Position numbers and translations under genes: made by a program
Part shown: positions 1 through 4,324 of the stretch, piece after piece
Numbering within the stretch: the first letter of the stretch is position 1
Layout: each line of letters starts with the position of its first letter
Virus record (IMG/VR): IMGVR_UViG_2534681764_000020
Location: 1-4,324 of that record
From: a virus
Lineage: Duplodnaviria > Heunggongvirae > Uroviricota > Caudoviricetes
Strand: one strand, 5' to 3'
DNA length: 4,324 bases
The notes under the pieces: generated by a model
Database searches by the model: none
Told to the model about the DNA's origin: nothing
The model's input: only the letters and a program-made list of their open reading frames with translations

Positions 1-573
1 ATGTTTTGCGAAGAAAAAGTAGCTCAAATGGCTGCATACCTACTTCTTAAGCGAGGTGGGCGCATGGCATATCTGAAATTGATGAAGTTGCTCTATCTGT
101 CTAACCGCCAGTCGATTTTGAAGCATGGCAGGATGATCGGCGAAGATAGCCTTTACTCTATGAAATTTGGACCAGTCATGTCGAATACGCTGAACTTGAT
201 TCGCGGTAAGGCTGAAGGCATTGGTGACTACTGGTACAACTTGATAGAGACGAACGGGCATAATGTATCGTTGCGTTCAGATCCGAGGGAAATGGATGCA
301 GACGAGGTCTTTGATGAATTGAGTCGTGCAGATATCCGGATTTTAGATGAAATCTATTCTCGGTATGGGCATATGAACCGATTTGATCTCGCAAATATGA
401 CGCATTTAGAAAGCGTTTGTCCAGAGTGGCACGATCCTGGCAATTCTCGTAAGCCTATAGACCTGAAAGAAATGCTGATCAGTGAGGGTAAAAGCGAGGA
501 TGAGGCTAATCGCATAATTGGCAAAATGGAAGAATCTCAGAAACTTAAGGAATTTTCTTTGCAATTATCATGA
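1..573 (+). CDS. Panacea-domain (DUF4065) protein, PanA/SocA/GepA-like putative antitoxin; N-terminus may extend beyond the window
   Basis: The 190-aa ORF contains the segment LKLMKLLYL...GEDSLYSMKFGPVMSNTLNLIRG, which matches my recollection of the conserved Panacea core (LKLQKLLY...W.YGPV). Its stop codon overlaps the start of the next ORF (ATGA at 570-573). The ATG at position 1 coincides with the window edge, so the true start is uncertain. Confidence 0.72.
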   Translation: MFCEEKVAQMAAYLLLKRGGRMAYLKLMKLLYLSNRQSILKHGRMIGEDSLYSMKFGPVMSNTLNLIRGKAEGIGDYWYNLIETNGHNVSLRSDPREMDADEVFDELSRADIRILDEIYSRYGHMNRFDLANMTHLESVCPEWHDPGNSRKPIDLKEMLISEGKSEDEANRIIGKMEESQKLKEFSLQLS

Positions 574-989
574 CGGATTATCAGCCATACAGGAAAGGAA
601 CTGTGCTTGCCCCAACTGGGCCATGCAATCATCTTCATGTGATTTGTAATGATCCTGTTTATTACCCCGTTAACGATTGTTATTGTGTTTTAGTTGTTAA
701 TATTTCTAGTATCAAGGATGGTGTCCCCCACGATCCGTCTTGCGTCTTGAATTCTGGTGATCATCGCTTTATCAAGCATCCAAGTTATGTTGTTTACGCT
801 GAAGCTATAATTTGGCGAGTGGATAACATGGTTAGAAAGCAGCGATCGGGTGAGATTTCTGTTCATGATGATATGCCAGAAGCTACATTCAATAGAATTC
901 TGGACGGTTTTGATATCTCTGATGAAGTTACGCCAAAGAACCTTAAATTTAAAAATAAATATTGCGTATCATCTATTGATGATGAGTAA
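570..989 (+). CDS. hypothetical protein, candidate cognate toxin/effector of the Panacea-domain protein; fold unrecognised
   Basis: 139-aa ORF whose ATG overlaps the upstream stop by 4 bp (ATGA), suggesting translational coupling. There is no nearby Shine-Dalgarno sequence (AAGGAA lies about 18 nt upstream). The N-terminal half is Cys/His-rich (CNHLHVIC, CYC, SC...DH). The DNA looks AT-rich relative to the neighbouring operon. No family recognised from memory. Confidence 0.55.
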   Translation: MTDYQPYRKGTVLAPTGPCNHLHVICNDPVYYPVNDCYCVLVVNISSIKDGVPHDPSCVLNSGDHRFIKHPSYVVYAEAIIWRVDNMVRKQRSGEISVHDDMPEATFNRILDGFDISDEVTPKNLKFKNKYCVSSIDDE

Positions 990-1202: not shown

Positions 1203-1221
1203 TCATAGCTGGTGCTTTTTG

Positions 1222-1250
1222 AAAACCCGCCTTTAGGCGGGTTTTTTATT
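1222..1250. terminator. Rho-independent terminator at a convergent gene junction, probably bidirectional
   Basis: Perfect 10-bp inverted repeat AAAACCCGCC / GGCGGGTTTT with a 4-nt loop (TTTA), followed by TTTTTTATTT on the plus strand. It lies immediately 3' of both the plus-strand 57-aa ORF and the minus-strand gene ending at 1250. On the minus strand the trailing U-run is weaker (GGGUUUUC then A-rich). Confidence 0.82.
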
Positions 1251-1531
1251 TAGTGATGTTCTTTGCCCTTCTGTTTGCTTGTTCTGACCTGTTCCCACTC
1301 GATACGTCCTTCTTCTCGTCTTTTGTCTATGTATTCCGCAAGATCCTGAATATTGATGCAACGTTTTGCTTTTTGTGATGTGCCGATGCGATATGTTGGA
1401 ACGGGCAACTTACAAGCGTTTGCTTTTGCTTCTGCCGTGGATGGACTCATACCAAAGTACTTTTGGCTAACTGCTGAGAGTTCAATGTTTGGGGTATTGA
1501 ATTCAGCCATCAGTAAAAACAAGGTGTTCAT
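1250..1531 (-). CDS. PrtN/excisionase-like small DNA-binding protein (putative phage Xis or regulator)
   Basis: The ORF track gives 1250..1558, but that start is GTG with no RBS. The in-frame ATG at 1531 is preceded by GGAG with a 6-nt spacer and gives 93 aa. The segment IELSAVSQKYFGMSPSTAEAKANACKLPVPTYRIGTSQKAKRCINIQDLAEYIDKRREEG resembles PrtN/AlpA-type winged-helix proteins as I recall them. It is the last gene of the operon. Starts at 1543 or 1510 remain possible. Confidence 0.5.
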   Translation of the reverse strand: MNTLFLLMAEFNTPNIELSAVSQKYFGMSPSTAEAKANACKLPVPTYRIGTSQKAKRCINIQDLAEYIDKRREEGRIEWEQVRTSKQKGKEHH

Positions 1532-1567
1532 AATTTTCTCCATCAAAACCGGCTGCACCCGGGAAAA

Positions 1568-2140
1568 TCATAATTCTGTGCTGGTGGCAGGAATTAATTT
1601 CTGCCAGATAGCGGAAACATATTTTGCCTGATGACGGGCATCAGCCCGGGCGTTGTGCCGTTCGCCATCGAAAGGCATGTCCATTTTGGGGTCGAATCCG
1701 ATGGAACGCCCAAGCGTAACGATCGTGCGTACATCGTGGTCATTCCAGTATGCCCACGGGCAGATTTGTCCTGCTCGCTCATAAGCTCCACGTAAAATTA
1801 CGTTGTCGAAGGTGGCCCCGTTACCCCAGACTTTTAAATATTTCGTATTGTCTGCGTGCCGGTTAATGAAATGATTTAGTTCTGAGAGAGCATCGCTGAT
1901 CGACAAAGTATCATCAATGCAGATTGCAGCTCGTGCTTCAGGGCTTTGTTTCAACCACCACAGGATGGTATCGCCGTCAGGTGTAGCTCCTTGCTTCATA
2001 GCACTGTCTAGGCTGACAACCGCATAGAATTCTTGTCCGATGTCTCCGGTTTCGGGGGTGAAGAACACTGCGCCAATAGAAACGATCGGCGCATCCTTAT
2101 TTTTCCCCATCGTCTCAAGGTCGATCATTAAGTTGTTCAT
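1568..2140 (-). CDS. DEDDh-family (DnaQ-like) 3'-5' exonuclease, phage-type
   Basis: Motifs read directly from the translation: Exo I MIDLETMG (D, E), Exo II WGNGATFDN (D), Exo III H-NARADA (H...D). The track ORF (1568..2224) is over-extended: the ATG at 2140 is preceded by AGGAGGTG and overlaps the upstream stop as TGATG, giving 190 aa. Confidence 0.85.
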   Translation of the reverse strand: MNNLMIDLETMGKNKDAPIVSIGAVFFTPETGDIGQEFYAVVSLDSAMKQGATPDGDTILWWLKQSPEARAAICIDDTLSISDALSELNHFINRHADNTKYLKVWGNGATFDNVILRGAYERAGQICPWAYWNDHDVRTIVTLGRSIGFDPKMDMPFDGERHNARADARHQAKYVSAIWQKLIPATSTEL

Positions 2141-2421
2141 CACTTCACCTCCTGCGGCGGTTCTTGTATTGGCATCGACTGAGCTATATATAGCGGCTGA
2201 ACATACCAGCCCTTTGATAACCAACTGTCAGCAACGTTTTTACTTCTGGTTATTGCTGGAATACCCAAGCCATTGTCTGAATGCAGCCATGCCACCGGTT
2301 CTGCTTCCAGCGAGGCTAACGCTATTTCATAAGCTCGGCGCTCAATATTGTCTCGCACGTCCAAGCTGCCTATGCGCTCTTTGATTTCTTTAATCAGTTC
2401 TTTGTCGGTAAAAGTGGTCAT
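2140..2421 (-). CDS. hypothetical phage protein (93 aa)
   Basis: ORF with an AAGGAG RBS 6 nt upstream of the ATG at 2421. Its stop overlaps the exonuclease start. No family assigned confidently; contains EPVAW and PLY motifs of the sort seen in prophage proteins of unknown function. Confidence 0.6.
   Translation of the reverse strand: MTTFTDKELIKEIKERIGSLDVRDNIERRAYEIALASLEAEPVAWLHSDNGLGIPAITRSKNVADSWLSKGWYVQPLYIAQSMPIQEPPQEVK
2146..2153 (-). promoter_or_regulatory. Shine-Dalgarno (AGGAGGTG) for the exonuclease gene
   Basis: Reverse complement of 2146-2153 is AGGAGGTG, 5 nt upstream of the ATG at 2140 (minus strand). Confidence 0.65.
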
Positions 2422-2431
2422 GTGTTACTCC

Positions 2432-2695
2432 TTAACCCGCAGTGCTTTCAACTGACGAGGGGAACAAAATCTTTTCATCAAATCCGGCATTCATATCATG
2501 GACAGCAACACACCAATCCATTGACGAACGATTATCAAGAGCCTCCATGATTTCATCCATGCGGCGTAGGTCATACAGGTAAATATTTTTATCGCCAATG
2601 GTGTAAAAACCAATTTTTTTCGGTGATGGACAGCGATCAATAACGTCCTGTAATTCGTTCAACCATGCCTGTTCTTTTTTTGTCAAAGTTGCCAT
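2432..2695 (-). CDS. hypothetical phage protein (88 aa)
   Basis: Trimmed from track ORF 2432..2785 to the internal ATG at 2695 (MATLTKKEQAWLNEL...), which sits 1 nt after the upstream gene's stop and has an AAGGA motif upstream. The longer N-terminal extension would overlap the membrane-protein ORF. Confidence 0.5.
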   Translation of the reverse strand: MATLTKKEQAWLNELQDVIDRCPSPKKIGFYTIGDKNIYLYDLRRMDEIMEALDNRSSMDWCVAVHDMNAGFDEKILFPSSVESTAG

Positions 2696-2696
2696 A

Positions 2697-2915
2697 TCAG
2701 TTTTCCTTATACGGATTAATTTTATTGTGCAGTGTGTTGAACGACGCCCATACCACGTCGTTATACAATTCAATAACTGGCTCAATTATTTTCCCGATTG
2801 CCCAGACAAAAATTAGCGGGGATATCGGTATCATCAACACGATAAACAGAATGAGAAACAGGAATTCTGTCGTTCTACTCTTTCGCGGATATTCTTTTCT
2901 GAATAATGTCGGCAC
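2697..2915 (-). CDS. small single-pass membrane protein (72 aa), probable GTG start
   Basis: A basic N-terminus (RKEYPRKSRTTE) is followed by a roughly 24-residue hydrophobic segment (FLFLILFIVLMIPISPLIFVWAIG), consistent with an N-in transmembrane helix. The start codon at 2915..2913 is GTG, preceded by GGAGAG. AT-rich. There is no in-frame ATG that would keep the TM segment. Confidence 0.5.
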   Translation of the reverse strand: MPTLFRKEYPRKSRTTEFLFLILFIVLMIPISPLIFVWAIGKIIEPVIELYNDVVWASFNTLHNKINPYKEN

Positions 2916-2916
2916 A

Positions 2917-3249
2917 TCACTCTCCTTTGATGCGAATGCCAGCGACGCGTAGTGCGTGTTCTAAGTCAATCAGGCAAAGCCAACTGCCATTTTCTTTAGG
3001 TATCATGACATGTCGCTTATCAGCATTTATTGGGTGCCCATATCGAAGGTCGTAGCGAGTCGGTAATTGAACTTCCCTCGCTTCCAGTTCTGTAATGCGT
3101 TTGTTTTTAGCTTCTAGTTCATCCAGCAGCGCCAGCACAACCTGCGGTGTGACTTTCATACGAAATGCCAGCAATTTTTGTGGTGTGGCTACTATTTTTA
3201 TTGCTTCTGCCGCCTCACGCAGTGCCTGATAGTTAATTTTGGTTGTCAT
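2917..3249 (-). CDS. Ead/Ea22-like family phage protein
   Basis: 110 aa; N-terminal INYQALREAAEA and the central VLALLDELEAKNKRITELEAR coiled-coil segment match my recollection of Ead/Ea22-like prophage proteins. The start overlaps the upstream stop as ATGA, with a GAGGTG RBS. Confidence 0.6.
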   Translation of the reverse strand: MTTKINYQALREAAEAIKIVATPQKLLAFRMKVTPQVVLALLDELEAKNKRITELEAREVQLPTRYDLRYGHPINADKRHVMIPKENGSWLCLIDLEHALRVAGIRIKGE

Positions 3250-4124
3250 GCCACCACCTCTTCGAATTTCAACTCCAATTGATCACCCCAGATTTCACAT
3301 GACTCTGAACACGAGCCGGTATCGAATCGCCTGGCTTGCACCATCGCCTGATACAAATTTCTGTAGTCGCTGTCGGCATACATTCTGGCAATCCCGTCAA
3401 GACTCAGATGACCACGGTACATAACGTCTTTATCTGTCTTTCGGTGACCATCCCGGACGTGTTTACCTGTAACCAGCTCATTAAAAACTCTCATCAGACC
3501 AGGTTCGTCTTTACATGCAAGCCCCAGCTTTTGCGTGGACTTTTTGATGCAGAAAACACAGTTCCCGAGGTGCTCCGGGATTTGCAAATCAAAAGGTTGT
3601 TTATGCCACCACCGGATAACATCCGACTTATCAAAATCAGATAGCTCGGCAAGATACCGGACGCCTGATTTCGGTTTCAGCCTACGAGGTTCGTCTGCAC
3701 GAATACCCAGCCATGTGATGTAATTCCCTCGTCCGAAATGGTCATCGCAGTATTTTGTGAAGGGGGTGAGTTTTAATCTGTCAGTGCAGAACGCGCCGCC
3801 GATGTATGGCGTGCCATATTTTTTTACCATGTCCATAAACGGTTTAAGCACCGGCATTCGCGTCTGAATATCCTTTGGTTCCCATTCCGTATAACCATTT
3901 GGCTGCCCAAGCTCTGGATTTATATCGACCTGCAACACAGTTAGCGGTATGCCCCAGAACTTCACAACCTCCCGAATAAAGCGGTATGTCAGCGGATGTT
4001 CGCAACCGGTATCCATAAAGATGTAGCAGACGTTATTACCAGCCTTTCTTTGTTCTTCCATCAGGTGAACAAGATATGCAGATGTTCTCCCGCCAGAAAA
4101 ACTAACTACATGAGTTATGCACAT
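3246..4124 (-). CDS. phosphoadenosine phosphosulfate (PAPS) reductase family protein, PP-loop ATP pyrophosphatase superfamily
   Basis: 292 aa; an N-terminal PP-loop-like motif VVSFSGGRTS (a variant of SGGxDS), a conserved D-T-G segment and a C-terminal CxxC (CVFC). Its position in a prophage early operon next to an Ea22-like gene is common in enterobacterial prophages (from memory). Confidence 0.8.
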   Translation of the reverse strand: MCITHVVSFSGGRTSAYLVHLMEEQRKAGNNVCYIFMDTGCEHPLTYRFIREVVKFWGIPLTVLQVDINPELGQPNGYTEWEPKDIQTRMPVLKPFMDMVKKYGTPYIGGAFCTDRLKLTPFTKYCDDHFGRGNYITWLGIRADEPRRLKPKSGVRYLAELSDFDKSDVIRWWHKQPFDLQIPEHLGNCVFCIKKSTQKLGLACKDEPGLMRVFNELVTGKHVRDGHRKTDKDVMYRGHLSLDGIARMYADSDYRNLYQAMVQARRFDTGSCSESCEIWGDQLELKFEEVVA

Positions 4125-4321
4125 TTGCGTAATTCCGATAACTCGTTGAAGCGTGCCATAAACATCCCGTAGGCATGGCCCGGTGCCAGTGGAATCACGT
4201 TGAACATCTCTGTTGCCGGGATGCCTTCCAGTACAGGCCAGAAAGAGCCATCATCAAGCCCGAGATCGCGGCGTTCGGTTGCCAGCATGATGAGATCGGC
4301 ATATTTCACGGGTGTACTCAT
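4115..4321 (-). CDS. hypothetical protein (68 aa or longer), start possibly beyond the window edge
   Basis: The ORF overlaps the PAPS-reductase start by 10 nt. The reading frame is still open at the window boundary (codon 4322-4324 is sense), so the ATG at 4321 may be internal. Confidence 0.45.
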   Translation of the reverse strand: MSTPVKYADLIMLATERRDLGLDDGSFWPVLEGIPATEMFNVIPLAPGHAYGMFMARFNELSELRKCA

Positions 4322-4324
4322 AAC

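Follow-up and report, generated by a model that had tools for sequence, protein, structure and literature searches.

What does the small open reading frame at positions 570-989 encode, lying directly behind a gene for a Panacea-domain protein? The window, that is the whole stretch of 4,324 nucleotides analysed here, covers one end of an mEp460-like lambdoid prophage of E. coli, beside a dusA fragment. A preliminary description of its sequence had seen in the frame an effector with clustered Cys and His residues, paired with the Panacea gene as a toxin-antitoxin (TA) module, and had likened the clustered residues to a zinc ribbon or treble clef and not to a classical RNase toxin. Our analysis makes it probable that the two genes form a type II TA pair of the PanA-PanT kind, in which a toxin of MazF-type fold is translated in coupling with its antitoxin, inhibits translation and is probably an endoribonuclease with a non-canonical active site. 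Coordinates of the features are collected in Table 1.

Table 1. Features of the panA-panT locus (positions in the window; L001 is the locus that contains the window)
Feature	Position	Strand	Size	Basis or remark
panA, Panacea-domain antitoxin gene	1..573	+	190 aa	PF13274, PGAP name and synteny
panT, toxin gene, PanT cluster T6	570..989	+	139 aa	predicted MazF/Kid/CcdB-like SH3-barrel fold
ATGA junction	570..573	+	4 nt	panT start codon overlaps panA stop; putative translational coupling
GTG start used by PGAP	603..605	+		128-aa form of the toxin
orf57, small conserved phage gene	1029..1202	+	57 aa	phrog_2741, E = 8e-36; own SD, -6.9 kcal/mol
Putative intrinsic terminator hairpin	1221..1246 (L001 7221-7246)	.		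strong; 11-bp stem (6 GC pairs) between an A-run and a T-run

A gene paired with a Panacea antitoxin

The frame at 570-989 is a real gene. Its plus-strand translation of 139 residues contains GPCNHLHVICNDP, NDCYCVL, DPSCVLNSGDHRF, DISDEV and SSIDDE, exactly as the preliminary description had quoted them. Close homologues of the toxin fall into 62 clusters, and a profile search with the family retrieves 2,700 representatives at 50% identity with E <= 1e-3, 941 of them at E <= 1e-10. Against its closest relatives the gene has a dN of 0.09 with saturated synonymous sites. The reported clustering of Cys and His holds, these being 10 of the 52 residues between positions 19 and 70 compared with 4.1% in the other ORFs of the window (binomial P = 4e-5). 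So does the AT-richness of the gene relative to its neighbours: its GC content of 0.386 and its GC3 of 0.314 are the lowest among the genes of the window, and none of the 420-nt segments of 1250-4324 (mean 0.462, minimum 0.388) is as low. The C-terminus, described as acidic, is only mildly so (its last 25 residues contain 6 D/E and 4 K/R), and its SSIDDE tail is absent or altered in every aligned homologue. Horizontal acquisition of the toxin gene on its own, an idea prompted by a GC content below that of panA, was rejected because panA and panT co-occur throughout Proteobacteria.

In its protein cluster at 90% identity, the translation of 570-986 is grouped with PanA sequences of 190 aa and with a 'DUF4065' protein of 232 aa, and the cluster is represented by a protein of 190 aa. 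The cluster is chimeric; a fused or mis-called ORF perhaps bridges it, and cluster-level statistics for the toxin are therefore unreliable.

The upstream gene encodes a Panacea protein, as had been recognised (PF13274, E = 2.2e-19, 70.9 bits against a cut-off of 25.7), and PGAP names its product 'Panacea domain-containing protein'. The Pfam domain covers residues 27-137 and is followed by a C-terminal tail of about 53 residues; against the NCBIfam SocA equivalog the protein scores 14 bits, far under the cut-off of 190. Of the related loci, from gamma-, beta- and alphaproteobacteria, 31 were usable, and in 30 of these a PanA homologue lies immediately 5' of the toxin homologue (phmmer E 4e-114 to 1e-12). 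The PanA partners of the toxin family share the motif H-x2-E-x2-CPEW-x-DP-x2-S-x2-PI at residues 135-153. The tail that follows is of constant length and mostly net-acidic, and the region as a whole (135-190, window 403-573) is outside the Pfam Panacea match. By analogy with the tails of MazE and Kis, motif and tail together may, speculatively, be a candidate toxin-neutralising element.

Sequence comparison places the toxin in T6, one of the PanT clusters of Kurata et al. 2022 (PNAS 119:e2102212119; PMC8832971). In their Dataset S1, cluster T6 is listed in antitoxin-then-toxin order. Its rows include Pantoea septica LMG 5345, with an overlap of -4, and Yersiniaceae bacterium 2016Iso4, with one of -1; they correspond by strain and junction geometry to two loci of our set (L008 and L007, respectively). 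Members from Halomonas meridiana and H. stevensii were also recovered among the toxin homologues, and the taxonomic spread of the toxin family is that of cluster T6. The representative of the cluster is Pseudomonas moraviensis PanT WP_083201923.1 with PanA WP_083354365.1. This PanT is toxic and is neutralised by its PanA, with which it forms a complex in pull-down; it specifically inhibits incorporation of 35S-Met, and hence protein synthesis (PMC8832971). HHpred pointed the authors from P. moraviensis PanT to EndoA/PemK/MazF, and their 'RNase' label is a prediction (PMC8832971). The P. moraviensis protein SDU72800.1 (132 aa), presumed to be the counterpart of WP_083201923.1, is 43% identical to the toxin of the window (E = 6e-34), keeps H21, H23, D55, C58 and H65, and shares a 90% cluster with other Pseudomonas members.

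The PanA of the window resembles at its N-terminus those of P. moraviensis and of phage Sirocco (MIFSEQKVAQ). That decapeptide was restored to P. moraviensis PanA by the authors (PMC8832971); Sirocco PanA starts with exactly these residues, and panA and the toxin gene of Sirocco overlap by 1 nt, the value listed for P. moraviensis. The window module shares with the P. moraviensis T6 pair the antitoxin-then-toxin order, a -4 or -1 overlap and an antitoxin of about 185-190 aa that is a stand-alone Panacea protein and agrees at its N-terminus. Unlike that pair, it resides on a lambdoid prophage of E. coli, and the enterobacterial subfamily to which its toxin belongs additionally retains H23 and C26. 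The accessions of the window have no match in the available part of the supplements to the Panacea papers, an absence that means little.

Conserved pairing, an overlapping bicistron, a toxin fold and a validated toxic homologue all support the earlier reading of the two genes as a TA pair, and the pair is a new member of a catalogued kind, PanAT with toxin cluster T6 and a MazF-like fold. A toxin called 'hypothetical' in RefSeq thereby gains a function assignment and a family with one experimentally validated member; the gains for annotation are the start codon, the PanT name and the MazF-like fold.

Start codon and coupling to panA

Two starts for the toxin are in circulation. ATG 570 is annotated in the GenBank record of phage Lys8385Vzw; the RefSeq/PGAP entry WP_014640052.1 ('hypothetical') has 128 aa and begins at GTG 603 (L001 6603-6989). 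Both forms, of 139 and 128 aa, are found in public databases, each in roughly 1,000 contigs. Upstream of ATG 570 there is no Shine-Dalgarno (SD) sequence, the anti-SD duplex being at +0.4 kcal/mol compared with -6.9 kcal/mol for the next gene, orf57. GTG 603 is preceded by an SD-like AGGA (-5.6 kcal/mol).

The comparative evidence favours ATG 570 over GTG 603, because residues 1-11 are conserved, the -4 overlap is common, non-start codons align with GTG 603 and the early codons show a synonymous excess. Among close relatives P6 and G10 are near-invariant, and relatives have GTT, ATA, ATT or GTA at the codon aligned to GTG 603. The stretch AGGAAAGGA upstream of GTG 603 codes for a conserved Y-R-K-G, and within toxin codons 1-11 codons with synonymous differences outnumber those with non-synonymous differences in 7 of 8 comparisons. 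Every panA-panT junction compared is an overlap or a short gap. Of the 24 junctions to which a start is assigned, counting the window, 18 have the -4 ATGA overlap, and none of these 18 has a strong SD-like match; alphaproteobacterial versions have a spacer of 15-27 nt between panA and panT, mostly with an SD-like match. GTG 603 is probably not the main start.

The preliminary description had held that the toxin gene has no SD of its own and depends on translation of the Panacea gene; the conservation of the SD-less overlap supports this as an inference, and it is on this basis that we propose translational coupling. The toxin would be translated only by ribosomes that end on panA, through the SD-less ATGA overlap, and toxin synthesis would therefore depend on antitoxin synthesis.

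Fold, conserved residues and mechanism of the toxin

The AlphaFold2 model of the toxin, calculated from a 33-sequence alignment, is confident (pLDDT 92.7, pTM 0.85) and has a beta-barrel core followed by three helices, and the predicted fold is the SH3-like barrel of the MazF/Kid/CcdB type. Foldseek E-values for the model are modest, 2.3e-3 at best; MazF and Kid dominate both fold searches and outscore CcdB. As judged from the model, the relationship to MazF is structural only. Searches of PDB sequences with phmmer and with the family profile returned nothing for the toxin, and hhalign of the toxin family against an alignment of E. coli-type MazF gave a probability of 0.1%. PF02452 (PemK_toxin) does not match the toxin of the window and matches only 2 of 130 family members, weakly (best E = 0.011). 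Pfam, NCBIfam and PADLOC gave no usable match to the toxin, weak matches to ICMT and DapC being noise; PADLOC has no model for the product of either panA or panT, and in PHROGs the toxin matches only the unnamed family phrog_19071. Set against MazF, PemK and Kid (PF02452), the toxin exceeds them by about 25-30 residues and has two additional helices at its C-terminus, its antitoxin is PanA (Panacea) and not of the MazE/PemI/Kis type (AbrB/SpoVT), and the set conserved in its family is H/D/C/H where theirs is Arg/Thr.

In the enterobacterial subfamily H21, H23, C26, D55, C58 and H65 are invariant. Across 130 diverse members, H21 is kept in all 125 ungapped sequences, D55 in 126, and C58 and H65 in 127 each, the four occurring jointly in 115 of the 130. 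S/T47 (128/130), S/T72 (130/130), Y76, G63, F67, G113 and S117 are conserved as well. H23 alternates with F/Y/W and C26 with L/M/V/I, and both look like hydrophobic core positions by this pattern; C19, C37 and C39 vary freely. Thus H21, C58 and H65 survive from the Cys/His cluster originally flagged and its other Cys and His positions do not. In the AlphaFold2 model D55, C58 and H65 fall within 11 residues in the loop that follows strand 3, and strand 2 carries H21. The suggested zinc ribbon or treble clef was rejected for its fold, motif and conservation: the predicted barrel is the wrong fold, there are no CxxC pairs, and most of the flagged Cys and His residues are not conserved across the family.

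A forced global alignment of the toxin with MazF is meaningless. A relaxed local alignment is collinear with the strand order but non-significant (P = 0.067), and is therefore used only as a hint. In it H21 pairs with MazF H28, the neighbour of the catalytic R29, and S46/S47 with T52/T53, a hint that the conserved residues may border a groove corresponding to the active groove of MazF. No conserved Arg corresponding to the canonical MazF catalytic Arg was seen across the 130 family members.

We propose the following mechanism. PanA most likely neutralises the toxin by direct binding, as its P. moraviensis relative does, and toxin freed from PanA most likely arrests growth by blocking translation, by analogy with the 43%-identical relative. 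The toxin would probably be a sequence-specific endoribonuclease whose active site is unlike that of canonical MazF; the RNase chemistry, like the roles of the residues, is inferred. H21 and S/T47 would sit near the positions of MazF R29 and T52, with D55, C58 and H65 contributing. The view that the toxin is not of an RNase type finds no support. SocA-SocB of Caulobacter is the founding Panacea/DUF4065 antitoxin system. The antitoxin of the window carries the same SocA_Panacea domain. SocB inhibits replication and is degraded through SocA-ClpXP (PMC8832971); in contrast, the toxin of the window is MazF-like, and its family relative is documented to be bound directly by the antitoxin (PMC8832971).

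Other readings have to be weighed against a divergent endoribonuclease. Canonical MazF is metal-independent. The toxin could nonetheless be a metal-binding protein on a MazF scaffold, in which H21, D55, C58 and H65 bind Zn2+ or another metal in a structural or catalytic role; a metal-dependent chemistry, unlike that of MazF, would then be implied. This is the surviving core of the zinc proposal. It draws on the joint presence of the four residues in most of the family, on the genuine Cys/His enrichment and on the placing of three of the residues in one loop with H21 on strand 2, and His2-Asp-Cys is a plausible tetrahedral ligand set. We regard it as improbable, though the strongest of the alternatives set out here. 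The near-invariant C58, D55 and two His could instead form a Cys-His-Asp triad (C58, H65 or H21, and D55) of protease, deamidase or acyl-transferase type that modifies the translation machinery. That the MazF catalytic residues are not recognisable in the toxin would fit such an enzyme, but we know of no thiol-enzyme activity on any protein of MazF/CcdB fold. A triad with D, C and H inside 11 residues of one loop would be an unusual layout, and S/T47 is conserved at the position of the MazF catalytic Thr in the relaxed, non-significant alignment. The validated relative stops translation (PMC8832971), which would suit a thiol enzyme; even so, we think one unlikely.

Two further readings fare worse. 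A CcdB-like poison, with the barrel trapping DNA gyrase instead of cutting RNA, would be compatible with the general fold, but CcdB has a lower structural score than MazF, and MazF and Kid lead both fold searches. The P. moraviensis toxin inhibits protein synthesis specifically and not DNA synthesis, and because this phenotype of the relative is translation-specific, with translation and not replication as the target, a gyrase poison is disfavoured and was judged very unlikely. No more credence attaches to the protein being a harmless phage accessory that merely sits beside a Panacea gene. PADLOC, Pfam and NCBIfam have no match for it, and the evidence of toxicity comes from the relative and not from the E. 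coli protein itself; against this stand the co-occurrence with PanA at 30 of 31 loci, the overlapping bicistron typical of TA systems, the toxin fold and the validated toxic homologue.

The PanA-PanT endoribonuclease reading is the one we carry forward. Its residual interest lies in the unexplained set of His, Asp, Cys and His that is conserved on a MazF-type scaffold. A bolder and doubtful combination would take H21, D55, C58 and H65 with S/T47, S/T72 and Y76 as a new active centre on the MazF/CcdB barrel, be it a metal site or a catalytic site of thiol/imidazole type, and at the same time the module as an abortive-infection defence in which PanA senses incoming phage. If true, PanT-T6 would be a mechanistically new class of translation-blocking toxin and not a divergent MazF.

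A swappable cargo of mobile elements

On its plus strand the window carries panA, panT and a 57-aa gene, then a terminator; on its minus strand lie xis (PrtN-type), a 3'-5' exonuclease gene, Ead/Ea22 and a PAPS-reductase-like gene. The 57-aa gene, orf57, has no Pfam match and is kept in phage mEp460, which is without panAT; it apparently belongs to the transcription unit of panA and panT and lies outside the TA module. The hairpin between the convergent orf57 (+) and xis (-) looks like a bidirectional intrinsic terminator and is the probable end of the panA-panT-orf57 transcript, with panA and panT probably co-transcribed with orf57 up to this point. A promoter scan upstream of panA in L001 gave no more matches than shuffled sequence, and for this reason no promoter is claimed there.

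In phage Lys8385Vzw panAT lies between int/attP and xis. The prophage of the window has its integrase at the opposite end, consistent with an attP between int and panA, as in that phage. A truncated gene for tRNA-dihydrouridine synthase (dusA; L001 5643-5747), about 250 bp from panA, marks the attachment site of the prophage. In phage mEp460, the slot of panAT between int/attP and orf57 is taken by gene 023 (L002 3284-3817), which encodes an unrelated protein of 177 aa with no Pfam match and may be another cargo or defence gene; homology between mEp460 and the window resumes at position 1016. When complete E. coli genomes (5,426) were compared, part of 1-1260 was matched by 565 and the full cassette was present in only about 205 of these; several temperate phages have it as well. 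Since the mEp460 slot holds an unrelated gene and the full cassette is restricted to 205 of the 565 matching genomes, panAT is a swappable cargo, a further example of a TA module in the slot that lambdoid prophages have between int and xis. From its location, a role in prophage maintenance or in exclusion of other phages is plausible; we found no published phage-defence test of a panAT module in the literature.

Homologues of the toxin are also encoded by 9 sequenced phages and 3 plasmids. In the P2-like Pseudomonas phage Sirocco (OR683410.1), panAT is at the genome end and adjoins the portal gene. The toxin homologue of this phage (L037 1486-1884), a 132-aa protein 48% identical to the toxin of the window, follows directly after the PanA gene and is unannotated; the annotation instead places a 44-aa minus-strand CDS (1741-1875) over the toxin ORF. 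In the early-left operon of the window, a 72-aa ORF at 2697-2915 (-) contains the strongly hydrophobic stretch LFLILFIVLMIPISPLIFVWAIG and possibly encodes a small membrane protein.
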